Shown: positions 23,778 through 60,427 of the stretch, one piece after another
Layout: each line of letters starts with the position of its first letter
Numbering within the stretch: position 1 is the first letter of the stretch
From: a virus
Lineage: Duplodnaviria > Heunggongvirae > Uroviricota > Caudoviricetes
IMG/VR virus record: IMGVR_UViG_2740892441_000001
Length of the DNA stretch: 64,000 bases
Reading direction: 5' to 3' (one strand)
Program-made: the position numbers and the translations under genes
The notes under the pieces: generated by a model
The model's database searches: none
What the model saw: only the letters and a program-made list of their open reading frames with translations
What the model was told of the DNA's origin: nothing

Positions 23778-23797
23778 ATAGGTAAGTAAATACCTAT
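23778..23797. promoter_or_regulatory. palindrome ATAGGTA-AGTAAA-TACCTAT (motif B) just upstream of Dam RBS
   Basis: 7-bp inverted repeat. Confidence 0.3.
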
Positions 23798-23949
23798 TTT
23801 TGCATTTGATTTTATGTCTGGCAATCAAATAAAACGCGCCAGAAATGCAAACGAGAAGCTCTCTGGCGCGTTTTTGTGGTGCTGGGTATGTGATTGGCTT
23901 ACCCAGCACTATAAAGCTCTCTATGGGCTTTATTTTCAGTAGGGGAACG

Positions 23950-24759
23950 TCATCCAATAGTGTACTCCGCGACAAACTTCTTAACGATCGGTGATTCTTC
24001 GTTCAATGTTAGATTTCCACCGCCTCTAACGGCAATTCCTGTCGCTGGAAATACAGCCATCATTTGCCCAGCCTGAGTTGACGCAGTGTTAAGCGGATAC
24101 GGTTTTTCTGGATTGCTCATTAAAGCAATCTTAATACTATTACTTGTAGCCTTCTTTTCTGTGAGAAGGTGTCTCATGGAAATTACCGTGTAAACACTAA
24201 TATCTGGACCTCCGCTAAACCAATTAAGAAGGTTTAATATCTTATCCTTTGCTTTGACAGGCGCGTTATCGTAAGCGTCTAAGAAAATATCTTTTTCTAA
24301 GCCCGCTTTATTGAAAAACGAATCATCTTTATCACTTAAAGTAAAACGAGGACCTCTTGCAGTACGAGCTTTTTTATTTGTATTGCTATCATTTGACTGT
24401 TGAACTTTTAATTCATCATTAACCTCAACACACTCTTCAACCTCAATAAATCCCAATTGTTCTGGCTCGTTTTCGGCAGCTTCAACACTTTCAGCGTTAA
24501 TTACGTTTATAGGCTCATGCGCTAACTCCAACTCATTTAAAGCAGAGCTGAAATCACCTGCTTTTTCTTCATTGAACAGTTCTTCGGCAACATCATCAGA
24601 ACTCATGGCTACGCCAGCATCTAGGCCGAGCAGCAGATCGTCAATATCATCAGTATTTTCAACCTGTGCAGCTTTTTTTACTGGTTCATCAAGTGATTGC
24701 AACATGGCTGTCAGCTCGTCCAGATCATCATTTGTCATTACATTTTCAACCGAACTCAT
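23950..24759 (-). CDS. hypothetical acidic protein
   Basis: 269 aa, D/E-rich N-terminal half. Confidence 0.45.
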   Translation of the reverse strand: MSSVENVMTNDDLDELTAMLQSLDEPVKKAAQVENTDDIDDLLLGLDAGVAMSSDDVAEELFNEEKAGDFSSALNELELAHEPINVINAESVEAAENEPEQLGFIEVEECVEVNDELKVQQSNDSNTNKKARTARGPRFTLSDKDDSFFNKAGLEKDIFLDAYDNAPVKAKDKILNLLNWFSGGPDISVYTVISMRHLLTEKKATSNSIKIALMSNPEKPYPLNTASTQAGQMMAVFPATGIAVRGGGNLTLNEESPIVKKFVAEYTIG

Positions 24760-24917
24760 GTAAGTCTCCTTCTGTTTGGTTACATTTGCGTTTCGATGGC
24801 TACATTTTGACTAAACCTATCAGGCGGAAAAGTATTAAATACAGGCAGGAAATGATTGAAAGGCGACTGTTCTTTAAAAGAAAGCCTACTTTAAACTTTT
24901 TAAAGTAGGCTTTTGTT

Positions 24918-25466
24918 TTACACAATTTCAGAGGGTAATTTAAAAAATCCGTACTTATTACGTGCCTTAAAGAAGCATTGCATCATTAAGTTTGTGTCAT
25001 ATAAGGCACTATGTGCTTTGGCATGATCGTATATAAAGCCAAGAGAGAAGGCCAACTCTTCAAGGCGGGGACGTTTACCGTCTTCTGTGGCCCACAGGGA
25101 AAATAGAGTGTCAATCAATGGGATGTCTGGAAGCGAAAAACCGTAACTTTTCAGCTCATGCCTAATAAACGGAATATCGAACGCTTCGCCGTTGTGGGCT
25201 ATCCAAATATCGGAAGAAGAGAGATACGAAGCGACAGATGAAGCGTGATCGGCTAGTAACGGCTCGGCGGCTAAATCTTCAAGACTGATGCCGTGTACCG
25301 CTTGCGCTTTCGGATCGATACTGCGACGCGGGTTGAACCGCATTGCAAAACTATCAACCATTGTCTGTGTCTCAATTTCGTACTTCACCATTGCGATTTC
25401 AATGATTTTATGGCCTGAGAGGAAATCAAGACCTGTTGATTCGATGTCCACCCCTGTAGCAATCAC
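24918..25466 (-). CDS. DnaQ-like 3-5 proofreading exonuclease (DEDDh)
   Basis: Exo motifs DIESTGL, HNGEAFDIPF, HSALYD. Confidence 0.7.
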   Translation of the reverse strand: MIATGVDIESTGLDFLSGHKIIEIAMVKYEIETQTMVDSFAMRFNPRRSIDPKAQAVHGISLEDLAAEPLLADHASSVASYLSSSDIWIAHNGEAFDIPFIRHELKSYGFSLPDIPLIDTLFSLWATEDGKRPRLEELAFSLGFIYDHAKAHSALYDTNLMMQCFFKARNKYGFFKLPSEIV

Positions 25467-26257
25467 TTTTTATCTCCTTTTACTGGTCGTTTGGACGGTG
25501 TGAAGATGGCAGCTTCAACATCCCACCCCCTCAAAATTCGCTGCGAGATAATGGTCGCAGTCAAGCCAACCTCTCTAGCCCATTCGGTAATTCGCTGAGT
25601 TCTGCCGCGACACTCGATCAGACGCTTACTATCTCGGTTGGCATACGTGTCGACGCTGGCGTTAAGCGCGCGATCTAATGGCCACCCTTTCTTGATTCGA
25701 TAGTGAAGAGTTGATGTCTGAATCCCGGCTCTTTTAGCCCATTGTGAGAGAGTCAGCTTTTCCCCCTTATGCTCCAAAATTAAGTTTGAACGCGTGTTAT
25801 TGGCCTGTTCTTCAAAAGTCGCCCATCTGCAATTTTCAGGTTCGTAGTCACCATTCACATCTTTGCGATCAAGAGACATCCCCTCTGGTCGCTCTCCCAT
25901 GTCAGCATAAAAGTTTTCAAATATTTGCCACCGCTCGCAGACTTTGATACCTCGGCCGCCATACCACTTATAGGCGTGATGGGTTGGTTTTTCACATCGT
26001 TCCCGCATACCCAGCCATATACGATAAATTGGCGTTTTACTCATACCATGAGGCTTTACGCTACGGCGATGTGCGTTGTAGACACAGCCACACGATATTG
26101 TCGCCCCGTGATTTAGCTTCCCGTAACTAACCAGGCAGGTGTTGCCGCAATCGCAGATGCAATCCCAAAGTCGCCCTTGTTTGTTTGAAATACCGGAATA
26201 TTTAAGTGCAACCAACTTTCCAAAACGTTTACCTGTTATGTCTACCGGTTGTCCCAT
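25463..26257 (-). CDS. HNH-family homing-endonuclease-like protein
   Basis: Cys cluster; DRKDVNGDYEPENCRWATFEEQANN HNH-like motif; C-terminal helix-turn-helix-like repeats. Confidence 0.55.
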   Translation of the reverse strand: MGQPVDITGKRFGKLVALKYSGISNKQGRLWDCICDCGNTCLVSYGKLNHGATISCGCVYNAHRRSVKPHGMSKTPIYRIWLGMRERCEKPTHHAYKWYGGRGIKVCERWQIFENFYADMGERPEGMSLDRKDVNGDYEPENCRWATFEEQANNTRSNLILEHKGEKLTLSQWAKRAGIQTSTLHYRIKKGWPLDRALNASVDTYANRDSKRLIECRGRTQRITEWAREVGLTATIISQRILRGWDVEAAIFTPSKRPVKGDKK

Positions 26258-26266
26258 TACTACTCC

Positions 26267-26685
26267 TTACAACTTCTTAGCGCCCTTAAGTAGTGCGCTA
26301 CGTACAAATTGAGCCGCTTTTTTCAAAGTTTCTTCACTGGTTTCACAGACAACCGGATCTTTCCACTTACCTGACGCCGTGTTGAGAATGTTGATTTGGT
26401 TGCTATCCAGACAAACAGAGACGTAAAGCACCGTGCCACCAGCCAGCATCAAATGCATAGGAAACAGAGGCTTTTTACTGCCTTCACTGAACTGAGACAT
26501 GGCGATGTTAATGCTTCACCTACTTGTGCGCCAACAAGCCCTTGCGCAATTTCGAATACGGTACGAATAGCCAGACGAGCCTCTCGATCGCTCATAAGCG
26601 ACCGGGAATGTTCGTCCGCTACACGAATCAAAGCCTCTGTTGTTTTCCGATCCAGTTCATCTTCAAGTAACATTTCACTAAACAT
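26267..26685 (-). CDS. hypothetical protein, possibly one gene split by a frameshift (ORFs 26449-26685 and 26267-26500)
   Basis: Two same-strand overlapping ORFs in different frames. Confidence 0.3.
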
Positions 26686-26746
26686 TTTTTATCCTTAACC
26701 CATTTTGAGAGTTTTATTGTCGCAATGTCGAAGAGGCGAACAATTT

Positions 26747-27391
26747 CTAATGAACGGTCACTCGGCCACAGAACCGGTTTTCTATCTTTTCTACAGCGTT
26801 ATCTAGCATTCTCATCACTGATCTGGCTCTTGCTTCAACCGTGCGATATCGGTTGGAAACGACGAAGGTTTGCAGATCCCCCCTTTGCGGATGCAGGTGA
26901 ATTTTTGTCAGTTCCCCGCACATCAACGCATCAATACGAGCGACATACAGACGGTCTAATGATGCTCGTTGTGATCGCAAGTAATCTCGCTCTGAGAGAG
27001 CGACTCCCGGGCGTAAGCCAGCAATGGCGTTAAAGTTTGAAATAGCAGTTTTGTGGCAAAACTTTTCGATATCGAGGGCTAACTCAATACATCGATCTTC
27101 ATTGGTATGGCCGACCAAATCCAACGTGTAGGCCATAACATCAGCAGGTGTGCGATCGATAACAAAGCCTTCAACACCACGCGTAAGTAGCTCTATATGC
27201 TTTGCTATTTCCATTTGAATCTGAAGCCGCTCATATAGAGGCATAGACTCACCTACTCGAACACCGAGTCGGCTCATCAAACTTCCGACACCAGCATCCA
27301 CGTAAGGGATTCCGTAATGTTTGTCGATATATTTTGCCAGGGTTGTTTTCCCACTGCCCTGAGCACCAGTGATCCCAATCCGGTAATCCAT
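26747..27391 (-). CDS. P-loop kinase, putative deoxynucleoside monophosphate kinase
   Basis: N-terminal GITGAQGSGKTT Walker A; nucleotide-metabolism gene neighbourhood. Confidence 0.5.
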   Translation of the reverse strand: MDYRIGITGAQGSGKTTLAKYIDKHYGIPYVDAGVGSLMSRLGVRVGESMPLYERLQIQMEIAKHIELLTRGVEGFVIDRTPADVMAYTLDLVGHTNEDRCIELALDIEKFCHKTAISNFNAIAGLRPGVALSERDYLRSQRASLDRLYVARIDALMCGELTKIHLHPQRGDLQTFVVSNRYRTVEARARSVMRMLDNAVEKIENRFCGRVTVH

Positions 27392-27866
27392 TACGACCTT
27401 CTGTATACGATCTGCGAAAAGCCAGGCTCTTCCTCGCTGGCTCGTTGGGTATAAGCTGTTTCAACAGGCACAAAGCCTAAGTTACGCATCATGCTTGCCG
27501 GGAAGAATGCATCGGCGTTTGGTACATCAACGCCGATGTGGGAGAGCCAAATCTCTTCAACATGCGGCATGAATAGCGAGTAAATTTGTTCCCCGCCAAT
27601 CACCCACACAGGCTCTGGTAATCGCAACACATCATCCACACCAGCAGGTAGAATCCATTTGGTACAAAGCCATGAGAGCGCGTCAAAACGAGGTTATGAC
27701 GCTCTGGAAGAGGGCGTTTGAGACTTTCCATCGTTTTACGCCCCATAACGACAGTGGCGTTTTTGGTGAGTCTCTTAAATAGCTTCAGATCGGTAGAACA
27801 ACGCCAGGGGAGTTCATTCGCTATGCCGATCTCATAGTTACGGCCAACAGCAGCGATCATCTTCAT
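27391..27866 (-). CDS. frd: dihydrofolate reductase, apparent frameshift between N- and C-terminal halves
   Basis: N-half [21 protein letters not shown]...VMGRKT and C-half [10 protein letters not shown]... match DHFR in two overlapping frames. Confidence 0.6.
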
Positions 27867-28276
27867 TTGCTCACCTCATAGATGACCGGTCGATGGTGAG
27901 AGTCGGCTAAAGCGGCACGGAGTCGAGGATCGTGCACCAGCGCAGCGATAAGCAGATCGCCTTTATGCTCCGCTAATGTGCGCTTAATATGCTTCTCATA
28001 ACTGGTGCCATTCGGTACGAGATGAAGCCAGTCATAATCAACGCCAAAATCTTTCAGCCATCGTTTAGTTGGCGCTTCAAGAGTTTCAGAGCGGCTACTG
28101 ATAAGCACCACTTCAGCCCCTGAGCGAGCAAAACCACGCAACATACGGCTGGTGGGGAAAATGAGTTCATCACCGGCAATGAGCTGGCCTGCATCCGCGT
28201 CAGATACTGATTTACGATGGCTGGCATTTGCCAGCACACCTTCAATTTCGCATAAGACATACATACCTCTTGCCAT
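27863..28276 (-). CDS. hypothetical protein
   Basis: Start set at internal ATG adjacent to thyA stop. Confidence 0.4.
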
Positions 28277-28277
28277 A

Positions 28278-29381: not shown

Positions 29382-29396
29382 AAAAACCTCACAAAG

Positions 29397-29412
29397 ATAA
29401 GTAATTACTTAT
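29397..29412. promoter_or_regulatory. perfect palindrome ATAAGTAATTACTTAT (motif B) upstream of thyA RBS
   Basis: 16-bp palindrome. Confidence 0.3.
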
Positions 29413-29551
29413 TCATCGTGTGAGTTTACATTCATTGAGAGAACAAGACCAGACAGATAAAAAAATGGTGGCCATAGGCCACCAAAACGAATAGTCATTC
29501 CAGAGTTTTATTACGCATGTTAAATATACACAGATAGATAACTACCTACAA

Positions 29552-30421
29552 TTATTTTTTGATCATTCCGTACATTGCTGAGGCTTTAGCTTGCTCAACA
29601 AAGGAGGATAAATCGACATCACTATAGGTTGGAGACTTCAGAATCTTTCCATCGGAAATTCGAAAACCGATCATCTTATCGGTGCCATCAGCATGGCGGA
29701 ATCCCAGATCTGAAGAGTCGTATTTGCAGTTGGCCACAGCCTGGCGACGTTCCTCAACATCAGCAGGCCATAATTTTGTCATGTTAGACCGATGAATTTC
29801 GCCAACCAGCTCGACGACATTGATACCGAGGAAATCAGCCAGTCGATAAGTCATCATGCACGCCACATAGATTTTGTTCATTACACGGCGCAGTTCCTGA
29901 ATCAGCTCAGAATCCTTAACAGTCTTCTTCTCAAGTTTATCTGCCAGCTCTTCGAGCATACATGACGCCTCACGAGCTTCCTGAAATGGCATTGCCATAT
30001 CATCGAAAACAGTGTTACCGGGCACAAAAATTGTCTGCATAAAGCGATCAATGCTCTGTTCCTGCGTGTAATAGGTCATGCCGGTAGAAATACCACCTTT
30101 GATGGAGACCATCGTACCAACACCAACGTATAAAAAGTCGGCCATTGCATCCAGCAGTTGCTCAATATCCCCATTCATTGCGGCTGGAATACCTTCCACT
30201 ACAGCTTCTTCATGAATCAGGCTTGCACGGAGACGAAGCAGCTCTGGTGTCGGCATAACGCGTCTCGGATGCTGGAAGAGTTCATGAAACTGATCGACCA
30301 TCTTGTAAATACTTTCAGTGGCTACACCATGGCCTTCATGCAACTCATATGGTTCTGGCTTAAATCCAATGAGTCGATCGGTGGCAAGTTTCAGGTGGTC
30401 AGTCAGTTTGGTAAAGTTCAT
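29552..30421 (-). CDS. putative MazG-like nucleotide pyrophosphohydrolase (tentative)
   Basis: Start refined to MNFTK ATG with AAGGAA RBS; two helical EE..D-type repeats. Confidence 0.4.
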   Translation of the reverse strand: MNFTKLTDHLKLATDRLIGFKPEPYELHEGHGVATESIYKMVDQFHELFQHPRRVMPTPELLRLRASLIHEEAVVEGIPAAMNGDIEQLLDAMADFLYVGVGTMVSIKGGISTGMTYYTQEQSIDRFMQTIFVPGNTVFDDMAMPFQEAREASCMLEELADKLEKKTVKDSELIQELRRVMNKIYVACMMTYRLADFLGINVVELVGEIHRSNMTKLWPADVEERRQAVANCKYDSSDLGFRHADGTDKMIGFRISDGKILKSPTYSDVDLSSFVEQAKASAMYGMIKK

Positions 30422-30498
30422 GCTAGTTTTGTTCCTTCTTAATTCTTGTGATCCATTGTGGCCCAGCGTTGCCAGGCCACATAATGCTTTGTATCGGT

Positions 30499-31641
30499 TT
30501 ACAGGTCTGCAAACTGGCTTAGAGAAGCCTTGTCCACGGTAGAATCGATCTGACCTACCAGATATGTGCTTTGCTCTGCCTCTTGTGGTGCAATTTGCAG
30601 TGTGTCGGTTAACAACCACTTGTTCATCCAGACCAGCGGATCTGTGGTAACTTCTGGAAATAAAGCCTTCAGGCCAAGACGATTCATAGCCAGATTGGTG
30701 CGGTATTTTACATAGGTCTTCAGAATATCCGCGTTTAAACCAATCATCGAACCGTCTTTGAAGAGATAGTCTGCCCAGTTCATTTCTTGTTCGGCGACTG
30801 ATTTCATGGTGTCGTAAATGACGTTTTCTTCATCAGCAGCAATCTCTTTCCACAATAAACCTTCGCGACCGGTACGCATGAAGCGGATCATGCGTTCAGT
30901 TCCTTCGCAATGCAGAGCTTCATCACGGGCAATAAAGCGCATAATTTTGGTGTTACCCTCAAGCAACTTCCGTTCGCCAAAGGCAAACGTACATGCAAAA
31001 CTTACATAGAAACGGATCGCCTCAAGCGCATTAATGGACACCAACGTGCGGAAAAGCTGACGGTGCAAAGGGTATGGCTCCCAGCCATATTCATTTACGT
31101 ACAGACGTTCAAACTCTTTCTCACCTAACGACTGGCGCTCGCAGGTCATCCCATAAAGCCTGTCATATTCAGCAGAGATACTGATCGCTCGGTTGATGAT
31201 TTCTTCATCCGTAACAATACCGTCAAAAACAATACTCGGATCGTCCACCATGCCACGAATAATGTGGGTGTAGCTGCGGCTATGGATAGTCTCAGAGAAA
31301 GACCACGTTTCAACCCACGTTTCCAGTTCAGGAATAGAGATAAGCGGCAGCAGAGTTGCGTTTGGGCTACGTCCCTGAACTGAATCGAGCAACGTTTGAT
31401 AACGGAGATTACTCAGGAAAATGTGGCGTTCGTGGTCCCGCAGCTTCGTATTGAAGTCGATGCGATCGCTCGAAATATCAACTTCTTCCGGCCGCCAGAA
31501 GAAAGACAATTGACGTTCAATCAACTTTTCAAAATCACGGTATTTTTGTTGATCGTAACGAGCCACGTTGACAGATTGTCCGAGGAACATAGGCTCTTTG
31601 GTTGCATCATTAGCACCCAAACGGAACGTTGAATATGACAT
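30499..31641 (-). CDS. nrdB: ribonucleotide reductase beta subunit
   Basis: Matches E. coli NrdB over its length as recalled ([36 protein letters not shown]...[15 protein letters not shown]...ARDEALH). Confidence 0.9.
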
Positions 31642-31663
31642 GTGTTTTTCCTTTTTTGATGTG

Positions 31664-31700: not shown

Positions 31701-31741
31701 TTACAAATCAAAGATAAGGTGGGGATATACCCCACCATATG

Positions 31742-34056
31742 TCAGATTTTGCAGGCTCCGTCGCACTCATCTTCTGGCTCGACGGCTACAGCTTGCGTAA
31801 GTGGATTCTGCGCTTCGTCGTCATCACGCTTTCCTGCACCATCTCTGGTGTTGTGGTAGTAAAGCGTTTTAACTCCCATCTTGTAGGCGAGAAGCAAATC
31901 TGACAGTAGCGTCATCATTGGGACTTTATCGCCTTCAAAGCGAGAAGGGTCATAGTTGGTATTGGCTGAAATAGCCTGGTCAAAGAACTTCTGGATGATC
32001 GCCACCTTTGTCAGATAGCCGCGGTTGTCCGGCATATCCCACAGGTATTCATACTGTTCCTTCAGTTTTTCAAACTCAGGCACGACCATCTTGACGATGC
32101 CGTCCTTAGAAGATTTCACTGACACCGGGCCACGAGGCGGTTCGATGCCGTTGGTGGAATTAGTGATCTGGCTGGAAGTCTCGCATGGCATTTGTGCCGT
32201 CAGTGTGGAGTTGCGAAGGCCGTATTTTGCAATACGTTCACGCAGTTCTTCCCACGGCATCTTTAACTCAAAGTTGGTTTCGCCGCTTTCGTCTAATGAA
32301 GAACGGTAATGGTCGATCGGCAACTGACCAATTGCGTATTTGGTCTGCTCAAACCAGTCACACTCACCTTTTGCTTCAGCAAGTCGGCAGCTGGCGTCAA
32401 GAAGGTAATACTGGATAGCTTCGAACGTTTCATGCACCAGTTTATTGCCAGCGGTATCAGAATAACGAACGCCATTCTTTGCCAGGTAATAAGCAAAGTT
32501 GGTTACACCAATTCCCAGGCTACGACGAGCTTTGGCAGGCACTTCGGCTGCCTCCATCGGATAGTCTTGATAATCCAGTAACGAATCCAGTGCAGCAACG
32601 GCATAGAACGCCACCTCTTTAAGAGACTCCAGTGAACGGATGGCTCCGAGGTTAAAAGCGGATAAAGTGCATAGCGCGATCTCACCGTTCGGGTCGTCGG
32701 TAAATGCCAGTGGACGGGTGGGTAGAGTGATCTCCATGCACAGGTTTGACTGGCGAACAGGTGCAAGAGCAGGAATGAAAGCGCCATGCTCGTTAATATG
32801 ATCGACGTTCGCAATATAAATTCGGCCCGTGGACGCTCGTTCCTGCATCAGAGATGAGAACAGCTCAATGGCAGGTACTGACTTCTTGCGAATTGAATCA
32901 TCGGCTTCGTATTTATGGTACAGCTTTTCAAACAGATCCTGGTCTGTGAAGAAGGCTTCGTACATATCAGGCACATCATGCGGCTGAACAGAGTGATGTT
33001 CTCGCTTCTGACGAGTCGACGGTACATTAGACGGTTACTCATGACGCCGTAATCAAGATGGCGAACGCGGTTTTCATCAATACCACGGTTATTTTTCACC
33101 ACCAGCAGACTTTCAACCTCAAGATGCCAAATCGGGTAAAACGCTGTTGCTGCGCCACCACGAACACCACCTTGCGAACAAGATTTAACAGCCGTCTGGA
33201 AATGCTTCAGGAATGGAATAACTCCGGTATGGGTGGCTTCACCATTGCGGATCTCACTGCCCAGCGCACGGATACGGCCAAAACCAATACCAATTCCAGC
33301 ACGACGTGAAACGTAGTCGATAATTGCGGCTGAAGCTGCACTAATCCCTTTCAGACTATCGCCAGACTCAATCAGCACACAACTGGAGAACTGACGGGTT
33401 GGAGTACGGACGCCGGCCATGATTGGTGTGGGCAGAGACAGCTTGAACGTACTTGTAACGTCATAGAAACCTTTGACCATCTCCATACGTGTTTTGCCCG
33501 CGCAGTCGTCTTCCCAATTCTGGAACAGACACATGCCCACCAGCATATAGATATGTTGCGGGCCTTCGTGAATCTCACCAGTAACACGGTTTTGAACGAG
33601 GTATTTGCTTTGCAACTGCACCGTAGCTGCATAGCCAAAAAGATCGTCACGTTTCGGCTTAATGTAATTGCCGAGTTCTTCGATCTCTTCAAATGAATAA
33701 TGTGTCAGCAAATCCTTGTCATAAACGCCCTTGTTAACGTTCTTGACAATGTGTTGGTAGAAGTTCGGATAGTCGTAACGACCGAAGGCATCTTTGCGGA
33801 TTTTAAAAATGTTCAGGCGGGCAGCCACCTGCGAGTAATTTGGTGCATCTGGTGAGATCAAATCAGCGGCAGATTTAACCAAAGCCTCATGCAACTGGCT
33901 GGTGGTAATCCCATCAAAAATGCTGGTCGCAGCTCCCATTGCTACAGCGGATGCGCTTACACCACGAATGCCTTCTACGCCATACATTACGACGCGGTTG
34001 TATTTTTCTTCGGATAACGGCTCTGTTTGGCCGTTACGTTTTACGATGCTTATCAT
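31742..34056 (-). CDS. nrdA: ribonucleotide reductase alpha subunit, split by a single-base frameshift near 32975-32985
   Basis: ORFs 32848-34056 and 31742-32974 both match E. coli NrdA; restoring one C after ...TLFS reconstitutes FSPHDVPDMYEAFF. Confidence 0.85.
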
Positions 34057-34129
34057 GTATCACCAAATAAAGAGGGCCACTATATTTAGTGGCCCATGTT
34101 AATAGATAAGCACTCACCTATCAATGAGA

Positions 34130-38785: not shown

Positions 38786-38805
38786 ATAGGTAAGTGAATA
38801 CCTAT
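38786..38805. promoter_or_regulatory. palindrome ATAGGTA-AGTGAA-TACCTAT (motif B)
   Basis: 7-bp inverted repeat. Confidence 0.3.
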
Positions 38806-43428: not shown

Positions 43429-43643
43429 GCTGCCACCTCTTTGATTACATCAAATGCTGAATTAAATACGAGCACGATAGCCAAAGCGTTTATGACTACA
43501 TCGTTCACCGGGGAAAAGACTTTACGAATGACACCAGTGAAAATGCAGTCGATGACAAAAGCTATTGACACGATGAGTAACAAGTATTCAATAAAAATCT
43601 TCATGATAGGTAGATACTAACTTATATAAATTTTACTGTAAAC

Positions 43644-43919: not shown

Positions 43920-43974
43920 GTGTTTTTCCTTTTGTGGTTAGTGTTTACTTATTTTGTTAGTTATGAATAGGCGA

Positions 43975-45558: not shown

Positions 45559-45574
45559 ATAAGTAAGTACTTAT
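45559..45574. promoter_or_regulatory. palindrome ATAAGTA-AG-TACTTAT (motif B)
   Basis: 7-bp inverted repeat. Confidence 0.3.
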
Positions 45575-45592
45575 ACATTTTCAACATACAAT

Positions 45593-50260: not shown

Positions 50261-50377
50261 GTGTTTCTCCTTGTTGTGATTTGGCCGATGGCGCTATGCG
50301 CGTTGGGCTTTCGTTCATTCGTGGCTCTTTCGAGCTGTTAAATGATAGATCAGTACTTACTTATTATCTATCAAAAA

Positions 50378-51063: not shown

Positions 51064-51288
51064 ATGAAGCAACATCCGAATAAGCATATTCAAGCAGCCA
51101 TTGACTATGCATTAAGTAAAGGCTGGATCTGGGTAGCAGCTGGTGGTGCTGCACATTGTTTTTGCAGACTGCGATGCGGTAATCCAGAAGGTGAACACAA
51201 AACTCACCAAATGAGCGTATGGTCGACTCCGGGTAATCCCGAAAACCATGCCAAACAGATCAAACGAATGGTTGATCGTTGTAAATGA
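51064..51288 (+). CDS. HicA-like toxin (tentative)
   Basis: 74 aa; KGWIWV..GGAAHCF...STPGNPENH...QIKRMV loosely follows the HicA pattern; GGAGG RBS. Confidence 0.35.
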   Translation: MKQHPNKHIQAAIDYALSKGWIWVAAGGAAHCFCRLRCGNPEGEHKTHQMSVWSTPGNPENHAKQIKRMVDRCK

Positions 51289-51348
51289 TTTCAAGGCGGC
51301 ATTAGCCGCCTTTTGCAGAAACTGTCCAACTATCTTCAAAGGAAAACT

Positions 51349-51912
51349 ATGGCGCTTTATAACTTCACTCTGACGCTCTCAGGCGTATCGTATGAGACGG
51401 AAGGACTGGAAGACGCGCTGTACCAAAACGGCTGTGACGATGCGCTAATTTGCGCATATGGAAACTCCGTCTATGTAGAATTTGACCGCGAAGCACAATC
51501 ACTTGATGCAGCTATCGCATCTGCGGTCGACAATATTGAATCAGCCGGTATCGGTGCAATTGTTGAATCCGTCGACTCGGCTCTTGTGGGCTTAAGCGAT
51601 ATCGCGGAACTGACAGACCTGTCTCGCCAGGCAGTGGCGTTGCTCAAAGACGGTAAGCGCGGAAGCGGCGACTTCCCTTGCCCTGTACAACGCATAAAAG
51701 GCCAGTCTCCTCTCTGGGATTGGGCTGATGTGGCTGAATGGCTCATGAATAACGGACGACTTAAAGAGGGCGATCAAATTGTCCAAAATGCCCGAACTTT
51801 GAGTAAATGGAATCTGGCGCTTCGAAACAGCGTCTCGAAAGATTTCAACGAAATAGAGCAAATTGCGGAGAAACTGATTAAACGCCGCAAAGATATTGCG
51901 AAATGCGCATAA
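51349..51912 (+). CDS. HicB-like antitoxin with C-terminal HTH (tentative)
   Basis: Start set at ATG after AAAGGAAAA RBS; C-terminal LSDIAELTDLSRQAVALLKDGKRG..WDWADVAEWL helix-turn-helix-like. Confidence 0.35.
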   Translation: MALYNFTLTLSGVSYETEGLEDALYQNGCDDALICAYGNSVYVEFDREAQSLDAAIASAVDNIESAGIGAIVESVDSALVGLSDIAELTDLSRQAVALLKDGKRGSGDFPCPVQRIKGQSPLWDWADVAEWLMNNGRLKEGDQIVQNARTLSKWNLALRNSVSKDFNEIEQIAEKLIKRRKDIAKCA

Positions 51913-51913
51913 T

Positions 51914-52457: not shown

Positions 52458-52733
52458 TTCAACGCTGATGATCCTCATTTCTACAATAACGAAGACGGTG
52501 TAAGCCTGAGTGGATAGATTTGTAGGATTGTACAAGTTGAATAAATTAGCATGGTAAGGCCATGCTAATTAAATCGACACAACGGCCAGTTTATTCCATA
52601 AAAGTGAATTGCCCATTGTGGCGAAATGCGGGGTTGCCGCATGAATAGTCAAAGGCAGAAGCTAACTGCCGGCATGGCAAAACAAAGTGCGTAAGAGGAG
52701 TGACTTCCTCAACAAGCGTCATAATTCTTTATA

Positions 52734-52757
52734 AACCCGCCAACAGGCGGGTTTTCT
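52734..52757. terminator. bidirectional terminator hairpin AACCCGCC-AACA-GGCGGGTT
   Basis: GC stem with T-run on plus strand and T-rich tail on minus strand; lies between csp and the dnaE-like stop. Confidence 0.5.
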
Positions 52758-52760
52758 TTA

Positions 52761-55700
52761 TTACTTATTTATTGTCTCCGCGATATCAGCCAGAATGGCC
52801 TCCAGTCGCTCTCCTTCTTCCGGTCGGAAGTACAGGATATTCGGGTTAAATCCGTAGAAGACGGTTGCATCAAGCTCTGGGAAGTACTCCTTACGACCAA
52901 TCAGATCTGATGGTTTACTCTTATTGTTAAATAGTGCGGTTGAACGACTACCACACGTCAAAATGTAGGTCGGACGCACCAGATTGATCTCTTCACGCAT
53001 AAAGTCGGTGAACTGGCCGATCTCGTCTTTGGTGTAGTCTTTTTCTTTGTCTTTAACCTTCTTGCAAACGCCTGTGACATAGAGATCGCCCATGCGTAAA
53101 TCTCCAGCCGTCAATAGCTTGGCCTTAAAGTCGTCGTATCCGTTCTCCATGAAGTAACCGGTTCGAGCATCATTGCCGTTCGCATTGTCCAGAATGATCA
53201 TGATTTTCGGCTTAATACCAATGCTGGGGCGGATTAGTTCATCACCTAAGCCCATTTCAGCCGCCATCCGTGTCATGAGCACGTTAATCTCAGCCGAACG
53301 TTTGGGGTTCATCTCAAACGGACGTGAGGCTTTAACTGCGTCTATGACAAGGTTTCCCATCAATTCAGCCTGGTCGCGTAGGCGCTCTGGATCAGTTGCT
53401 GGCAGACTACCTGGCTCGATGGATGCAAACGCCCCTACTTTTTGCAGCGATTCGCGCACTCGACTATTACAGGCACGTTTCTCGACAGCTTCTTCGAATT
53501 GCGCCAGTGACTCGAATTTGCCGCCAACTTTTTCTCGCGCTCTCATGATGGCTTGGCAGCCATTCTCAGAACACCCCTTCACAGCAGAGAAGGGCGCATA
53601 CAGCACCTGGCTGCCATCTTCAAGCGTGCGGATCTCGATTCGGTTAGATGACACGTTAACGTCTGGTGGCAATACGCGAATACCATAGGTCAGCGCATCT
53701 TTAACCAGCCCCTGGTGTTTATCTTCGCCAAGAATAGTGAGAGCAGCAGCGAAAAACTCTGCGGGATAATGAGTTTTCAACCACATAGATTGATAACTGA
53801 TTAAGGAGTAGGCAACAGAGTGTGATTTATTGAACTGGTAGGCACCATTTTTTTCGAATGCGGTCCAGATCTCCTTCGCTTTCATCTCTGATAGCCCTGG
53901 ATGTGACGCTGTAACGCGTACTGCGTTTATAGGTAGTTTTGCGCCGTGCTCAAGTGCCTCTTCGACAGTTTTCAGAGTTCCGTCTTCGCATTTAAAATGT
54001 TCCGCACGGTGAATGCGCTGTGTAGTGCCATCTTCCAGCTCAACGTCTATCCAGCCAGCTTGAGCCTGAACGATGAACTTCTCGCCCATGCTCTTCATTT
54101 TTTCCATGTTCTTCTTACCGATTGCGGAACGCACACCGTCAGCTTCAGCCATTGTGAAGCCGGCAAGCAATCGAGTCGCGTTCATCGTCTGTTCCTGATA
54201 GAGAATCACGCCATTTGTTTCCGCGGTAAGTTCATCAAGAACGGGGTGTAATGATTCCGGCGTCATAAAGCCTTTGGCGACAGAAACATAGTCGTCCAAC
54301 ATGCCGGATTGGATCGGGCCAGGTCGGAAGAGTGCGGTCGTGGCGACAACGGTTTTAAAGCTCATTGGCTCAATGCCACCGCCTAGATCTTTAAGCAGCT
54401 TGCGCATGGGGCCGGACTCCAGCTGGAATACGCCCTGTGTATACCCTGCAGCAAAACCATCCAGCACCTTGCGATCTTCAAGAGAAATGGCATCAAGATT
54501 GATATCTTCACCTGTGTTCTCTTTTATGTAGCGTTTTGCACTATCGAGCAAATCGAGAGTTGCCAGGCCAAGCACGTCCAGCTTAATTAGGCCCATAGCC
54601 TCGCAGTAACGCTTGTCAAATGCGATACAACGCGCGTCACCACGGCGCTCAACCGGTGTACGTTCTGTCAGAGGAACACCTGCTACAATCATCCCTGCCG
54701 CATGTCTACCAAAGCCACGCATAAGGCTTTGTAACTTGCAGGCTGCATTGAATGCATCAGGATATTTTGTTGCGTATTTGTCGAGACTTGCCAGTTGTTC
54801 GCGCAGCTCTTCCAATGGAAGGCTATCATCCTCGACGTTCTTCAGTTCTTTTGATACCGCCATATCTGCGGACTCCACACCATAAATACGAGCGGTGTCA
54901 CGTAGTGCAGAGCTGCGCCCAGGTAGGTGAAGTTCGGAATGCCTGCAACGTAATCTTCGCCGTAGCGTTCATTCAGATACTCGATCACCTCATGGCGACG
55001 TGCCTGGCTGAAGTCCAAGTCCGCATCCGGCAAGTCGAGACGCTCAGGGTTGATGAAACGCTCAAACAGAAGACCGTGACGGATTGGGTCGACGTTGGTT
55101 ATGCCTATGCACCACGCCACCAGAGAACCGGCAGAGGAACCACGACCAGGCCCGACAGGAATGCCAGTTTCACGGCTGTGATTCATCAGATCGCGTACCA
55201 TCAGGAAGTAACCACAAAATCCCAGGCGAGTCAGCGTGTTCATTTCGTACTTTAGCCGCTCAACATAAACCCTGTTCTCAGAAGCAGGTGGTGTGTATCC
55301 AAACTCTTTTGTGGTAAGACGTTTACGCAGCCCTGCAACAGCCAGTTTCATCAGCGTTGCAGGTTCGTCGTCTGCCATCTTGGGCAGTGCTGGTGGCAAT
55401 TCATGCCAGCGCCATGTGCAGGCATCGATAATGGAGTCCTGCGTTGTTGAGGCCATTGCAGCTGTTACCGGCACATCCATGCGAACGGAGAAGGCTTTAA
55501 GCGCCTCAAGGAGATGGCGACGACCATTGATGGCGTTATCTCGCTGGTGGGGGATACGCAGACGATGCGGCTGGTCGATTTTTATGTTGTTCGTAACCAT
55601 GTGCGCAATGTCTTTAATGTCTGCATCGTCGATCGATTCGTAATAAGCGGGATAGAACGCTACTGGCTCTATTTTCAGTGCGCTGGCTACTTTCATCGCT

Positions 55701-56278
55701 CGGACGTTAATCTGGTCGTAGAATGGGGTAGGGTGCGGATAAACCACGCTATAGAAGTTGTCTTTCCCGCCCGCTGTAATCAGTGAGCTTATGATTTTTG
55801 CAAAATCGTTGCGTTGGAACACGCTACCGATGTCGGAAGTGAGCAGGATGATGTTGCCTTTGGCATATGTAGAAACCAACTGTTCGAGCGAGAGACGCGG
55901 TACAAAGTAGAACTGTTCTCGTGTGTTGGCCACCGTCATTAGTTCGCAGATGTCGCGATATCCTTGCTCATTTTTAATTAGAGCGGTAAACGAGTAGTTA
56001 CGTCCCCGCTCTAATGATTCCATACATCTCATAGATTCTTTAGCAAGTTTAGCCCGGTGCTCGTATGTGGGATCATCAACGATATTTAGTTTCACACCAC
56101 AAATAACCGCCATGTCGTCACCAGCGGCACGTTGTAGTGGAATAACACTCGCAATATTCATGCTATCTGCTGAAATTACAGCGGTGTAGCCAGCTTCTCT
56201 GGCAATCTTCACCGCGTTTTCTGCTTTTAGAGCCGACTCCCCAAGTGAGAAGTCAGTTCGAACCATCAGTGCTTTCAT
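52761..56278 (-). CDS. dnaE: DNA polymerase III alpha-like (DnaE-type) polymerase, apparent frameshift near 54842-54878
   Basis: N-terminal ORF has PHP domain and GIPVGPGRGSSAGSLVAW..DPIRHGLLFERFINPER; C-terminal ORF has GLIKLDVLGLATL, GVFQLESGPM, FNKSHSVAYSLISYQSMWLKTHYPAEF. Confidence 0.8.
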
Positions 56279-56457
56279 GTGTTTTTACCTTTATGGTTTT
56301 TTTGATTTTGTCATTGGGGAAGCTACGAACTTCCCATACATCGAAATCGCAACTTCTTTTGCTGATTGGTGACAATCGGGCTTGTCTGGACATACCAGAC
56401 AAGCCTTACCAGTTTCAGAAGCAGCGATAAGAGAGCCGAAACATCCTTTACGCACGA

Positions 56458-57693
56458 TCAACCAAATATTTTTTGAACAACTTCACGAGCCGCTTGTGCA
56501 GAAGCTGAAGGGAGTTTGTTAATGAAAGAACGCTCAATACCTGTCACAAAGTCGCCTCGCATCATTCCAATCTTGGCCGACAACAAAAGTTCACGAGGGC
56601 CAATTGGCTGACTGATAAGGTGTTCTTCGTATCCATCGCGAACGATACCGGCAAACTTAACCATCTTTTCTGCGTATTCATCCACGATACCGGCATTTAT
56701 CAACATGTTGATCTCTGCCTCTTTGCTCATGTATTTCACATTCGAAACGATGCCAAAACGCGAAAAGTTCGCGGCGTTCTGGATGTTTGTACCCTGGTAC
56801 AAGCCGGTTTCATCACCAGATCCGTTCGTGTTGCCAGTGCCAATGAAAGCAAACCGTTCATGCGGAGTAATGCGACGCCATTCTGGAGTCGCCTCTTTGA
56901 TGACTAACGCTTCACCTTCCAGCACTGGCTGATACACGCCAAGAATTTGTGGAAACGCAAAGTCATATTCATCCGCGAGGTAAACCCAGCCATGCTTCAT
57001 TGCGAGCGCAAGCAAGCCAGGCTCGAAATACGTAGAGCCATCACGCGCCAGAATTTGTCCCGTAACATGTGCCTCTTCCATTGATGCTGTATGTTGGGCA
57101 CGGATCAACGGACGATTGAGCAAAGCACATAGCTGTGTAGGCAATGACGATTTGCCTGTTCCTGCATGACCCCACAAATAGCCTGGTATGCCAAGTTCAA
57201 GCATCATGAAAATGTCTTTGATCAGTTCGAAGTCGCCATATACGTATCCCTTCTTCACTTCTGGAACGAACTCTGGAAACGGCGTATTGACGTTGACGCT
57301 AACCATGAGCGGCGTCCCACGTTTTGTTCCGAGTTCTTTCACCGTTACGTTTAGCAGTTCGTGAGCTGCGACCAGATCTGTCTTGTACTCAACTGTGCCT
57401 GTGTAGCCTGGGCTACTGGTCACGCCAGATGATTTGGCCATTTCGCTTTTTTGCTCGGCACGTTTAGCTTGAATTGCATCAAGTGCCTTTTTCGATAGCG
57501 TTGGCTCATCTGGAAACTGTGTTGTGTACATTTTCAGTACGGTGTCAGGATCGGCATCTTTTACTGACTCAGGAATGCCCTCGCAATTACCATTGGCTAC
57601 ATGGGACTTAAAATAGTGAAATGATTTTCCGCACCACTTGCAAACAAGGTAATCAGAAGGATTTTTTTCATTTTGCAGTGCAGTAGTAGTCAT
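56458..57693 (-). CDS. CobS/MoxR-like AAA+ ATPase
   Basis: Walker A GHAGTGKS and AAA+ core; paired with the vWA protein. Confidence 0.65.
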   Translation of the reverse strand: MTTTALQNEKNPSDYLVCKWCGKSFHYFKSHVANGNCEGIPESVKDADPDTVLKMYTTQFPDEPTLSKKALDAIQAKRAEQKSEMAKSSGVTSSPGYTGTVEYKTDLVAAHELLNVTVKELGTKRGTPLMVSVNVNTPFPEFVPEVKKGYVYGDFELIKDIFMMLELGIPGYLWGHAGTGKSSLPTQLCALLNRPLIRAQHTASMEEAHVTGQILARDGSTYFEPGLLALAMKHGWVYLADEYDFAFPQILGVYQPVLEGEALVIKEATPEWRRITPHERFAFIGTGNTNGSGDETGLYQGTNIQNAANFSRFGIVSNVKYMSKEAEINMLINAGIVDEYAEKMVKFAGIVRDGYEEHLISQPIGPRELLLSAKIGMMRGDFVTGIERSFINKLPSASAQAAREVVQKIFG

Positions 57694-57755
57694 GCGTTTT
57701 TCCTTTGTTTTCTAATGAGCGTTCAACTTCTTATATAAATATATCATTATCTATC

Positions 57756-57771
57756 GTAAGTGGTTACTTAT
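57756..57771. promoter_or_regulatory. palindrome GTAAGT-GGTT-ACTTAT (motif B)
   Basis: Inverted repeat upstream of the cobS-like gene. Confidence 0.3.
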
Positions 57772-57788
57772 CGTTAAGGCTGTTTTGT

Positions 57789-59896
57789 TCACTTTAAAAT
57801 GATACGAGATAGTTCAGTAACTACAGATGAACCAAGACTATCAACGCTCGTTACCAGGGCATGATTTGAGTAAAATCTCTCCGGTGCGTCAGTCATGATG
57901 CCAATTGCCATCAAATCAATGTCAGTCTGCGTTTCAATTTGCTTCGCAACCGAACGCAAATGAGCGTCAAAACCTCTCCCAACAGCCCACGGCTCGCCAT
58001 CACTCAGAACAAGCATGATCTTCCTGTCCTCCATGCGACCGGAAAATAACGATGCAAGACTGGCTATGCTTTCACCATCCACGTTATTAAGAAGTGGGAA
58101 TGTGTAGCCTACGCACCCCATACGTGAGCGAACTTCGCGAGAATTTACCTTTTCATTCCAATTTTTGATGATAGGTAGCATTAAAGATTCAAAGCGAGAG
58201 AACTCATACTTGACAGCCTTAAGTTCTCCTGCCGCCATATGACTACCAAATGTAGTGAAGCCGGTGATAATGTTGGGAACATTTATTCGATCAAGGGCAT
58301 CGGCGATGGTATATGCACTTGCAAGAGCTAGTTTTATCGTTTCGCCACTCATTGAACCTGATAAATCAATCACTTGCTGAACACAGGCGTTAACGGCTTT
58401 AGATTCTTCTTTTTTACGAAACACGCGATCATCATTCATTGCTAATCTGTAGATACTAGAGCCATGAATGCGCCCCCGACGCTGGCCCGGTATAAACTGA
58501 ACTCTGTTTCTGCTTGCTATTGCACGTTCCAGGTCTTTTGCTAGCGTCGACGAAACACCTGACGAAAGATGCTTTTCAATATATTTGTCGAAGAGCTGGT
58601 TGCCTTCAGGAACGATGCGATAGCGGCTGATTGGATATCCTCCCAAATCAATATCGGAGAATGTTTTAATAAGCCGTTTGATATGGCTTCTGCCTGATCA
58701 ATCGAGCCGATGAAGTCGTATGAGCGATTGTATGGCCTGTATTCGCTTTTCGAGCTTTCTGTTAACTCGCTTTTAATCGTTTCGGATAGAGCATCTTCTG
58801 TCATGCCTCCGACTTCATCTTCTATGCTATCCAGCTCCTCTAAAGCCTCTTCCAGACTCATTTTTGACGGAGTTGGGATATCTGAAGAGCCGTCTTCTGT
58901 CGTTTTTCTTTTTTCGTGGTCAGCGGTTAATGATTCTGACGCCGCGTTATCAGAAGCATCAGAATCTGATACCTCTTTATCATTTTCTGTATCATCGAAT
59001 ATTGTTTCTGATGATTCAGAATTATCTGAATCATCACTGTTGTTATTATCATGTTTGTGCTTACTATGTGATTCTGATTTGATAGATTTGTGATTATCTA
59101 ACGATGAAGGTGTCTCATGATCTTCGTTGTCTTCATTGTTTTCTCCAGAGGCATCCGTCTGGTCAGCGTCAGAAGGATCGGAAGTTTTTCCCGGAGCTGA
59201 CTCCTTACCTTTGCTTTCACTTTCAGTGTCTTTGAGGATCTTAGCTATGGTCGCAGCCACCTTTACACAATCCTCGGTGCAAGACATGTTACGCACGGCC
59301 ACATCGATACCATATTCTTTTAATAATGAAATTGGTTTCTCAATGACAGGCCAGTATTCATCCATGAAATCTACGAACGGTGCTTGGCCATCCCAGGCTC
59401 TTACAACCGGACAGAGAAAGAAGTTTAGAAAAAGCGCGCGCTGATCTTTGCCACAATAAGCAATAGCCTCTGAAGCCTTTGGTTTAAAGACTTTTTCGAT
59501 TATAAGGCGCTGAGTTGCCATCAGATTACGTCTTGTTCCGTTAAAGACCTGACCCATTTTTCGCTCGATGAACACGTCTTCTAAGGCATTCCATAGCGAC
59601 CAGGAAGGAACGCGTCCTTTTTCTCTCATTTTGTTGGACACACGAATATCGGTAAACAAAATGTGAGCAACCTCATGATCGAGAAATCCGCGCACAGCAT
59701 TCATCAATGCCGGTGTTGCGTTATCCGGGATTGATGGGATGTTTACGAGAATTGGCTCTCCATCATCGTTATAGCGTACATAAGCGTCGTCCCCTCGTTC
59801 TGCAACAGGGATGTTTTTACCTGAAAGGAGAGCGACTACTCGTTTTACACTGTCACGGAAGTCCTGAACCTCTTTGATGGAACGTTTTTTAGACAT
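57789..59896 (-). CDS. CobT-like von Willebrand factor A protein with acidic Ser/Asp-rich linker, apparent frameshift near 58541-58646
   Basis: C-terminal ORF has MIDAS motif DLSGSM; N-terminal ORF carries an acidic low-complexity linker; the two overlap in different frames. Confidence 0.55.
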
Positions 59897-59994
59897 GGCT
59901 AATCCTTTGTTATGAAAACAAATTATTTACTAGTGTGTTTAATGTAGCACTGCGCGAACAGGGAACTAAGCCATTCGCGCAGGGAGAAGAGGGG

Positions 59995-60207
59995 TTAACA
60001 GATTCTGACGGCTAAAGACCCGGAGCCGGTATTGAGAAGCGTGAAGCGTTTGTTGTTAAGTTCGAATATAAATCCAGTTGTGTCATTCACACCAACCTGA
60101 ATCTGCTCATTCGGTAGATCGGTGAGGATGTCAGCTACACACTCATCAGCTAATTTCTGTACGTGTCCGATCTCAAGAGCGATTAGGCTGGAAATAGTGG
60201 TTTTCAT
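59995..60207 (-). CDS. hypothetical small protein
   Basis: 70 aa ORF. Confidence 0.3.
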   Translation of the reverse strand: MKTTISSLIALEIGHVQKLADECVADILTDLPNEQIQVGVNDTTGFIFELNNKRFTLLNTGSGSLAVRIC

Positions 60208-60384
60208 TCAATCAATCCATTCTAACTTATACTATGGTAAGGAATACTACTAAAATTTGTATCAATACTGAATACATTCATATCATATGAAAGTTGATTT
60301 TCTTACCTATTTTGGGCTAATTTTTCTCCGTGCAATGGCCTTTAACCGGTCTTTTAAGTGCCTATCGAAAAAAATGATAATAGC

Positions 60385-60412
60385 TTTACAACCCTAACCT
60401 TTGATGTAATAT
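60385..60412 (+). promoter_or_regulatory. sigma70-type promoter (TTTACA-16/17-TAATAT) for the HTH regulator
   Basis: -35/-10-like hexamers with suitable spacing upstream of 60459. Confidence 0.45.
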
Positions 60413-60413
60413 C

Positions 60414-60427
60414 GGTAAGCACTTACC
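60414..60427. promoter_or_regulatory. operator-like palindrome GGTAAG-CA-CTTACC at the regulator promoter
   Basis: Half-sites resemble the dispersed motif B palindromes. Confidence 0.4.

Follow-up and report, generated by a model that had tools for sequence, protein, structure and literature searches.

Dispersed 18-bp palindromes as candidate operators of a genome-wide repression system in an SSU5-like phage-plasmid

How an SSU5-like phage-plasmid could keep its lytic genes silent while it is maintained as a plasmid, and which DNA sites and which protein might carry such a switch, is the question raised by the IMG/VR virus record IMGVR_UViG_2740892441_000001 (Caudoviricetes), of which a stretch of 64,000 nucleotides, called the window throughout, was analysed. 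A first-pass annotation had described AT-rich palindromes scattered over this window, most of them near the starts of minus-strand genes and one at the promoter of a Cro/CI-like helix-turn-helix (HTH) regulator gene (60459-60845), and had compared them with the dispersed operators of phage P1 that are bound by one repressor. SSU5-like and AB-like elements rank with the most common phage-plasmids of Klebsiella, Escherichia, Enterobacter, Salmonella, Yersinia pestis (pMT1) and Acinetobacter, and some of them carry resistance genes (PMC9600943). No description of the plasmid/lysis switch of these elements was found in the literature, and searches by motif strings and by SSU5 regulation returned no relevant published description of either. 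The evidence observed here consists of the motif, its statistics, its conservation, the lack of selection for pairing and a directional overlap with promoters; the overall explanation that we favour on balance, if by a modest degree, is that the palindromes serve a genome-wide repression system as its operators on double-stranded DNA.

The relatives of the window were judged from a megablast search with its positions 23000-46000 as the query. Escherichia phage Cyrano (OV696614.1), an SSU5-like phage-plasmid of E. coli LF82, matched in reverse orientation with 98.5% identity and 90% query cover, Salmonella phage SSU5 matched at ~79%, and Klebsiella phage-plasmids were more distant. Mapping of the translated Cyrano genes placed the window between CYRAN_113 (partial) and a point slightly beyond CYRAN_40. 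The minus strand holds nearly all lytic genes, among them genes for recombination, nucleotide metabolism and DNA polymerase III as well as cobS/cobT-like genes, and the plus-strand Cro/CI-like gene adjoins an integrase gene.

All eight palindromes cited in the first-pass annotation are present where it had placed them, and their enrichment holds against a shuffled control: ATAAGTA-N2-6-TACTTAT occurs three times compared with 0.00 in 100 dinucleotide shuffles, and TARGTA-N0-10-TACYTA gives 11 matches (9 distinct sites) compared with 0.07. When trained on an alignment of sites of Cyrano, SSU5 and Klebsiella pJN2-26, a symmetric weight matrix recovers 17 sites in the window at a threshold of at least 12 bits (0.14 in shuffles) and 18 sites at 10 bits or more (0.48 in shuffles); the site at the window end is missing from this list in its true register, 63981-63998, because the matrix requires flanking bases there. 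The dispersed palindrome family is thereby confirmed and is larger than described before, as it spans 3541 to 63998, wider than the earlier coordinates, and gains ten sites, namely 16600, 21568, 22739, 23116 (doubtful), 29535, 34103, 43607, 43934, 50346 and 59083 (inside cobT). From the end of the palindrome to the next start codon the distance is 12 to 59 nt for the Dam methylase, thymidylate synthase, membrane-protein, CYR107-like and cobS genes (Table 1) and 114 nt for sbcD when measured to the start that matches the Cyrano annotation.

The half-sites had been read as separated by a variable spacer, which turned out to be an alignment artefact: all sites fit one ungapped 18-bp palindrome, TARGTAAG-TA-CTTACYTA, and this fixed 8-2-8 register rules out a variable-spacer model. 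Each arm consists of two TAAG units with a 4-bp period, and the apparent spacers of 2 or 6 arise because the inner or the outer TAAG unit is degenerate and the remaining units are read alone. The centre is TA, TG or CA, and the A/T-rich flanks are also symmetric. Over 81 sites, T5 and A14 are conserved in 100%, T1/A18 in 91/94%, A6/T13 in 91/90%, the central T-A in 86/88% and G4/C15 in 84/80%, and conservation peaks around G4-T5 and A14-C15, two blocks with a spacing of 10 bp, a distance that corresponds to one helical turn. The half-sites may resemble NarL heptamers as well as RcsAB and DtxR boxes.

The arms of the palindrome are conserved in their sequence rather than in their pairing. For 76 distinct 18-mers, 79.5% of the cells are paired compared with 79.9% after shuffling (371 of 500 shuffles reach at least the same value), and the covariation score is 0.128 compared with 0.133 in shuffles. 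At no arm position does pairing depart from the value expected of independent bases. At positions 3/16 (R3/Y16) the four combinations occur independently (Fisher p=0.29), with no sense-strand G.U bias, as G..T and A..C are found 12 times each, and changes in the inner arm between orthologues are uncompensated. This lack of arm covariation makes a hairpin unlikely and a dimeric DNA-binding protein the likely reader, and two sequence-conserved arms with their blocks 10 bp apart point to a symmetric dimer on double-stranded DNA.

The same sites recur across related genomes. The complete genomes of Cyrano, SSU5 and Klebsiella pJN2-26 contain 25, 27 and 29 sites, respectively, at orthologous intergenic positions, and 24 of the 25 Cyrano sites lie in or touch non-coding DNA, which makes up 13% of that genome. 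The motif precedes operons of every lytic module, including the portal, tail, tail-fibre and holin genes, and is absent from the accessory region (window ~4-16 kb). Between Cyrano and SSU5 the identity of the motif is 88% (94% at the ten strongest positions) compared with 73-77% for the 40-nt flanks (p=2e-4 and 1.6e-3), and in the orthologue comparison some sites, for instance those upstream of dam and thymidylate synthase, are retained although their flanks are no longer recognisably alike. The consensus is nearly constant across Escherichia, Salmonella and Klebsiella, and the motif is also present in a second Klebsiella lineage. The 111-kb phage-plasmid of Acinetobacter baumannii NZ_CP016301.1, whose core proteins are 35-60% identical, has 34 matches compared with 7.2 in shuffles, and its consensus, TTAGTAAG-CG-CTTACTAA, shares the core AGTAAG-NN-CTTACT with the enteric one.

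The site inside cobT has counterparts at a similar place of this gene (window 59083-59100, SSU5 43662, Klebsiella pJN2-26 91933) and may be an internal promoter or operator.

The sites overlap predicted promoters, and they do so with a direction. The -35 and -10 matrices are our own approximations and all promoters named here are predictions. For 115 sites of four genomes, the score of the overlapping promoter averages 7.88 bits in the direction of the gene compared with 6.24 bits antisense (Wilcoxon p=1.8e-7), and scores of at least 8 bits are reached at 64 of the 115 sites in the forward direction, at 20 in the antisense direction and at 4.7% of random positions. Since the palindrome adds equally to both strands, directional promoter elements account for the excess in gene direction. 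Motif sites coincide with all six of the top lytic-strand promoter predictions of the Cyrano genome, and the best of them, TTGAAA-17-TATCAT, corresponds to the window site 45560-45577. On the other strand the best intergenic predictions are found at toxin-antitoxin loci (next to HicA and KacT/antitoxin), and the regulator promoter is also listed. The -10 element starts most often at motif position 17 and also at 20, -4, 25 and -7. No -35 or extended -10 was found at a set distance from the motif, which rules out a fixed -35/extended -10 geometry. The -10-like hexamer at position 17 is present in ~50% of the enteric sites, but equally on both sides, so that a directional bias of the -10-like flanks alone was rejected and only the full promoter scores are directional.

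In the mechanism that we propose, a symmetric dimer of a phage-encoded repressor would bind the 18-bp palindrome, and the spacing of G4-T5 and A14-C15 would let two HTH units contact the DNA from the same side. A sigma-70-type promoter overlapped by the palindrome would open each lytic unit (replication, recombination, nucleotide metabolism), and the structural and lysis genes of the full genome would likewise be under palindrome-overlapped promoters. The palindrome would mostly fill the 17-bp spacer between -35 and -10 and elsewhere cover the -10 or the start point, and because of this overlap bound repressor would exclude RNA polymerase. Many sites abut or overlap the upstream stop codon, and those between a stop and the next start codon could block read-through in the manner of the mycobacteriophage stoperators. 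About 100 kb could thus be kept silent during plasmid maintenance, with the site-free plasmid and toxin-antitoxin genes staying on. As judged from the sequence, action as a repressor operator is probable.

The candidate for the repressor is the HTH protein encoded at 60459-60845, and its own promoter would be part of the network. In line with the first-pass annotation, GGTAAG-CA-CTTACC (60412-60429) directly follows the -10 of this promoter, and it corresponds to the inner 14 bp of the 18-bp model; beside the 18-mer TAAGTAAGTACTTACTTA, which represents the palindrome, the own-promoter site is weaker. It starts at the last T of the -10 of this strong, conserved predicted promoter and thus covers the start point, so that binding there could provide negative autoregulation. 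The layout of TTTACA-16-TAATAT with an immediately following palindrome is the same in Klebsiella pJN2-26 and in a P0032-bearing plasmid of a second E. coli lineage, whose regulator is 62% identical, and in Acinetobacter three sites are clustered within ~280 bp upstream of the HTH homologue. The regulator stays below the cut-off of Pfam HTH_19 (19.7 bits compared with 30.2) and matches PHROG 8 'transcriptional regulator' (E=1.3e-11). Its AlphaFold model has a pLDDT of 84-88 over residues 11-80, and the closest Foldseek superpositions of the N-terminal domain, C.AhdI and 434 Cro/cI, reach a root mean square deviation of 1.5-1.9 Å over 61-63 residues with weak E-values of 0.006-0.1, Stl, HigA and lambda repressor being also among the matches; the predicted structure is that of a five-helix, lambda-repressor-like XRE/Cro-CI HTH domain. 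Pfam detects no S24 peptidase domain in the protein. The putative recognition helix 'GYKNxNNLSLIKSGKIPLP' hardly varies among the enteric homologues, which have the motif in common. In PLSDB, 995 plasmids have an HTH homologue and 996 the family TerL, with near-identical genus counts, these being aggregate counts and not per-record co-occurrence. In the LF82 lysogen CYRAN_45 is expressed 10-fold above background, and genotoxic stress induces Cyrano (PMC9928086). No site is directly upstream of any gene that this study lists as expressed in the lysogen. Taken by itself, the assignment of this protein as the binder is tentative, close to but short of an even chance.

Two further repeats are found around the regulator operator. 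Isolated half-sites, TATGGTAAG and CTTACCTA (60233-60241 and 60302-60309), occupy the intergenic region that separates the regulator promoter from a divergent small gene; they are spaced by 60 bp and may form a split operator or act as auxiliary half-sites. The operator is bracketed by an inverted repeat, AACCTTTG/CAAAGGTT (60396-60403/60445-60452), which was rejected as a second operator family, being confined to this spot and lacking conservation in Klebsiella pJN2-26.

Several findings weigh against a repression system read by this protein. About half of the sites have modest promoter scores only, no -35 lies at a fixed distance from them, and the symmetry of the -10-like flanks means that part of the promoter-likeness is intrinsic to the palindrome. 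SSU5 has no homologue of the integrase/HTH module, yet it keeps 27 good sites. SSU5 was isolated as a free phage and has been used in biocontrol cocktails, and we take its lifestyle to be lytic, so a recent deletion in a free-living lytic isolate is a plausible cause. In Acinetobacter the HTH homologue is 38% identical and differs in the residues of the putative recognition helix, while the core of the motif is kept, and conservation of a motif from Enterobacterales to Acinetobacter is unusual for an immunity repressor. For the P0032 regulator variant, whose helix is altered, only 5 sites in 20 kb were available for comparison of the motif.

In the strongest rival, though an unlikely one, the palindrome is the site of a phage activator or dual regulator, with a promoter whose -10-like hexamer starts at position 17. 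Besides the HTH protein, the only candidate families conserved in all four lineages are the winged-helix protein CYRAN_123 and two ParB-N-domain proteins, both encoded outside the window. The top candidate for an activator is CYRAN_123, a small protein encoded just upstream of the terminase genes; a protein of this type would switch off repressor synthesis at the HTH promoter. Its homologues are present in every motif-bearing genome, including SSU5 and, weakly, Acinetobacter, and the conservation of its putative recognition helix (T[KR]Q[SA]I...) exceeds that seen in the HTH protein. The hexamer at position 17, seen also in most Acinetobacter sites, is found at 1-2% of random positions, an absent fixed -35 would suit an activated promoter, and core transcription signals are typically conserved from one host order to another. 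Moreover, sigma-70-like promoters are depleted in 16-35 kb, where a simple consensus scan found 16 compared with 28.5 expected, two of its minus-strand matches lying on motif sites. However, the best promoters in gene direction vary in their geometry relative to the palindrome, and the -10-like flanks are equally common on both sides. Several sites lie within full promoters with a good -35 and the optimal 17-bp spacer (TTGAAA-17-TATCAT), which should fire without an activator, and at 29 of 106 sites the next start codon is within 20 nt, so that transcripts starting 10-11 nt downstream would lack the ribosome-binding site. The variable geometry together with these full promoters is more in keeping with occlusion of RNA polymerase at an operator than with an activator site.

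An extension of this rival, improbable to a similar degree, treats the motif as a pan-family 'master switch' of SSU5-like and Acinetobacter AB-like phage-plasmids, which number about 1000 plasmids in PLSDB, with the winged-helix protein or a two-protein system as its reader in place of the CI-like repressor. In this extension, to which we give an equally small share of belief, the reader would fire ~25 otherwise weak promoters and shut the repressor promoter, with its specificity kept across two bacterial orders. If true, it would be a non-diversifying, cross-genus regulatory code and would imply cross-talk or cross-immunity among phage-plasmids of E. coli, Salmonella and Klebsiella. A phage sigma factor as the reader was rejected, since a sigma-70-family gene is found only in Acinetobacter and has no homologue in Cyrano, SSU5 or Klebsiella; in NZ_CP016301.1 this gene (30780-31445) adjoins a cobS/MoxR-like gene.

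Far less probable than an activator are dispersed centromere or KorB-like sites for the ParB-like proteins CYRAN_119/120, or a role in replication or packaging. IncP KorB provides a precedent for dispersed palindromic operators of ParB-family proteins, and N15 one for dispersed centromeres. The protein pair is conserved in all four lineages; its operon in Cyrano has a motif site 18 nt ahead of it, and the matching Acinetobacter operon is likewise immediately preceded by one. However, both proteins match the ParB N-terminal domain only, with no detectable HTH domain, the sites follow lytic operon promoters in gene direction, and no centromere-like cluster exists.

Least probable of all is a role as hairpins, formed in RNA or in single-stranded DNA, in processing, mRNA stabilisation, translational control near ribosome-binding sites or termination; RNA hairpins were the fallback of the first-pass annotation. 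The sites lie within transcribed intergenic spacers, often 2-20 nt ahead of start codons, and could form a 6-7 bp AU-rich stem, and the family encodes, just outside the window, a homologue of FljA, a protein that blocks translation of fliC mRNA (PMC2652032), but the spacer is fixed, the arms are conserved as sequence beyond mere pairing and without covariation, G.U-compatible and A.C combinations are equally common on the sense strand, inner-arm mismatches stay uncompensated between orthologues, a T-run is missing and the Acinetobacter element retains the motif with no FljA homologue found.

This FljA homologue, CYRAN_114 (Pfam Flag1_repress 1e-80), lies at Cyrano 100780-101301, just beyond the window start, has weak Hfq/LSM-like matches and is present in SSU5, and its counterpart in Klebsiella pJN2-26 is annotated as a phase-1 flagellin repressor FljA homologue. 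As an RNA-level binder of the palindromes it was rejected, being outside the window and having no homologue that was found in the motif-bearing Acinetobacter element; more probably it is a moron acting to silence the flagellin of the host.

Coming back to repression through dispersed operators, the system is best read as analogous to the P1 C1 operators and the L5 stoperators, but palindromic and with a candidate protein of a different family. The likeness to P1 proposed in the first-pass annotation stands as far as the sites are concerned, given a palindrome without covariation, promoter overlap at variable geometry and a site on the HTH promoter; the HTH protein stays a candidate binder, and the analogy is functional rather than homologous. 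Like this element, P1 is a phage-plasmid of similar size and lifestyle with a repressor, here with a site at the repressor's own promoter, and C1 keeps the lytic functions off through scattered operators near promoters (PMC8198154). P1 late genes are mostly driven indirectly via the activator Lpa (PMC8198154). The motif analysed here, in contrast, is a palindromic 18-mer that also precedes structural and lysis operons. The operators of P1 C1 are asymmetric 17-mers. Neither a C1 homologue nor an asymmetric 17-bp operator is found here: the candidate protein shows no sign of a relationship to C1 and matches XRE-type HTH models and folds only. What is found is 17-18 sites in the window compared with 0.14-0.48 in shuffles and 25-34 per genome in four lineages, overlapping lytic promoters as far as these are predicted.

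The 20-30 stoperators that L5/Bxb1 genomes carry in the short intergenic spaces of both their early and their late operons (PMC6550527) are matched by the motif in number and in the tight placement between stop and start codons. Stoperators are 13-14 bp long, lack dyad symmetry, are oriented with transcription and lie mostly off promoters, some of them being promoter operators and others blocking elongation, and their consensus differs among heteroimmune subclusters (PMC6550527). The sites described here are neither asymmetric 13-14-mers nor oriented; they form a symmetric 18-mer, mostly associated with promoters, whose consensus is near-constant across three genera. The lambdoid Cro/CI systems (434, P22 c2, lambda) share the fold, a palindromic operator of 14-18 bp, an operator at the own promoter, a spacing of one helical turn between the half-site centres and a pyrimidine-purine step in the middle. 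Their operators are clustered in two control regions beside the repressor gene, whereas here ~25 copies are spread over a 100-kb genome and the protein has no S24 peptidase domain. With an 18-bp operator, a map of ~25 promoters and a named candidate repressor, the question of the plasmid/lysis switch becomes directly testable, and the site map lets one annotate transcription units, predict cross-immunity and design derepressed (lytic) or locked derivatives.

Table 1. Motif sites, regulator gene and regulator promoter in the window. Site strand is given as '.'; bits for sites are symmetric weight-matrix scores; Kp, Klebsiella.
Feature	Position	Strand	Bits	Context	Overlapping promoter	Orthologues
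Motif site TTTGTAAGTACATACTTA (lytic-strand reading)	3541..3558	.	20.6	After terminator; 44 nt from palindrome end to CYR107-like gene	Minus-strand TTGTAA-17-TAGAAT, 10.9 bits	Cyrano 96687, SSU5 93166, Kp 28032
Motif site TAGGTAAATACTTACTTA	16600..16617	.	30.4 (top score in window)	Abuts stop of DUF4942 methylase-like gene; Ead/Ea22-like gene 43 nt downstream		Cyrano 84621, SSU5 84179, Kp 20936
Motif site TAAGTAAGTGTTTACCTA	21568..21585	.	24.5	Overlaps RNase H stop codon		Cyrano 79652, SSU5 79905, Kp 16843
Motif site TAGATAAGTACAAACTAT	22739..22756	.	21.5	Abuts stop codon of CYR80-like gene		
Possible weak site TAAATAACTACATATTAA	23116..23133	.	20.3	Downstream of dam; AT-rich, without conserved G4/C15; membership uncertain		
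Motif site TAGGTATTTACTTACCTA	23779..23796	.	27.5	12 nt upstream of Dam methylase start	TTGCCA-17-AAAAAT, last base = first motif base	Cyrano 77437, SSU5 77652, Kp 14622, in diverged flanks
Motif site TGAATAAGTAATTACTTA (ATAAGTA-AT-TACTTAT of the first-pass annotation)	29398..29415	.	24.1	16 nt upstream of thymidylate synthase start		Cyrano 72596, SSU5 72512
Weaker site ATTGTAGGTAGTTATCTA	29535..29552	.	14.3	Abuts MazG stop codon	TTGTAG-17-TATATT, 8.9 bits	
Motif site TAGGTGAGTGCTTATCTA	34103..34120	.	23.6	Between RuvC and NrdA, then GC-rich hairpin	TTGATA-17-TAACAT, 11.2 bits (antisense 1.8 bits)	
Motif site TAGGTATTCACTTACCTA	38787..38804	.	24.1	Upstream of sbcD		Cyrano 63200, SSU5 63081, Kp 344
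Motif site TAAGTTAGTATCTACCTA	43607..43624	.	23.6	2 nt upstream of CYR60-like start codon	TTTACA-17-TAGTAT, 10.3 bits	Identical 18-mer Cyrano 59400, SSU5 58075; close variant Kp 104806
Weaker site TAAGTAAACACTAACCAC	43934..43951	.	12.6	14 nt upstream of CYR59-like gene		Cyrano 59073, SSU5 57747
Motif site TGTATAAGTACTTACTTA	45560..45577	.	26.3	After terminator of RecA-like gene; membrane-protein gene start 33 nt downstream	Palindrome fills 17-bp spacer of TTGAAA-17-TATCAT, 12.5 bits	
Motif site TAAGTAAGTACTGATCTA	50346..50363	.	29.5	Between genes for UvsY-like and gp32-like single-stranded DNA-binding proteins	-10-like TATCAT from motif position 17	
Motif site TAAGTAACCACTTACGAT	57753..57770	.	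13.3	59 nt upstream of cobS		Cyrano 45264, SSU5 45125
Intragenic candidate site TAGATAATCACAAATCTA	59083..59100	.	13.7	Inside cobT		
Candidate operator at the regulator's own promoter, TCGGTAAGCACTTACCAG on + strand	60412..60429	.	10.2	Inner 14 bp perfect, outer TA pairs lost		
Motif site TAAGTATTTACTTACTTA at window end	63981..63998	.		Heads ~760-nt non-coding region, then tRNA cluster		Cyrano 38253, SSU5 41774, Kp 83367
128-aa XRE/Cro-CI type HTH regulator, candidate repressor	60459..60845	+		100% identical to CYRAN_45 'putative repressor'		
Predicted regulator promoter TTTACA, 16 bp, TAATAT	60385..60412	+	9.9 (promoter score)	TTTACA 60385-60390, TAATAT 60407-60412; sequence conserved in Klebsiella		

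Some further features of the window lie apart from the switch. DNA polymerase III alpha (52761-56278), NrdA (31742-34056) and cobT (57789-59896) are each split into two overlapping open reading frames, compared with a single one each in Cyrano, which reflects either frameshifts by sequencing error or gene decay. Accessory genes encode a UmuD-like S24 peptidase without a DNA-binding domain (10718-11104) and a methionyl-tRNA synthetase (7389-9419), and a HicAB toxin-antitoxin pair (51064-51909) has a very strong predicted promoter. No Rfam family matched within 62800-64000, the one stretch searched. The minus strand carries tRNA genes for Ser-tga, Thr-tgt and Asn-gtt at 62969-63216, as in the Cyrano annotation, and the ~760-nt non-coding stretch between these and the motif site at the window end (63217-63980, minus strand), whose first bases, ttgttttcgttgagacgcg, are kept in SSU5 and Klebsiella and which contains a predicted promoter, TTTACT-17-TAAGAT, could give the tRNA operon a long leader or belong to it as an unknown RNA.

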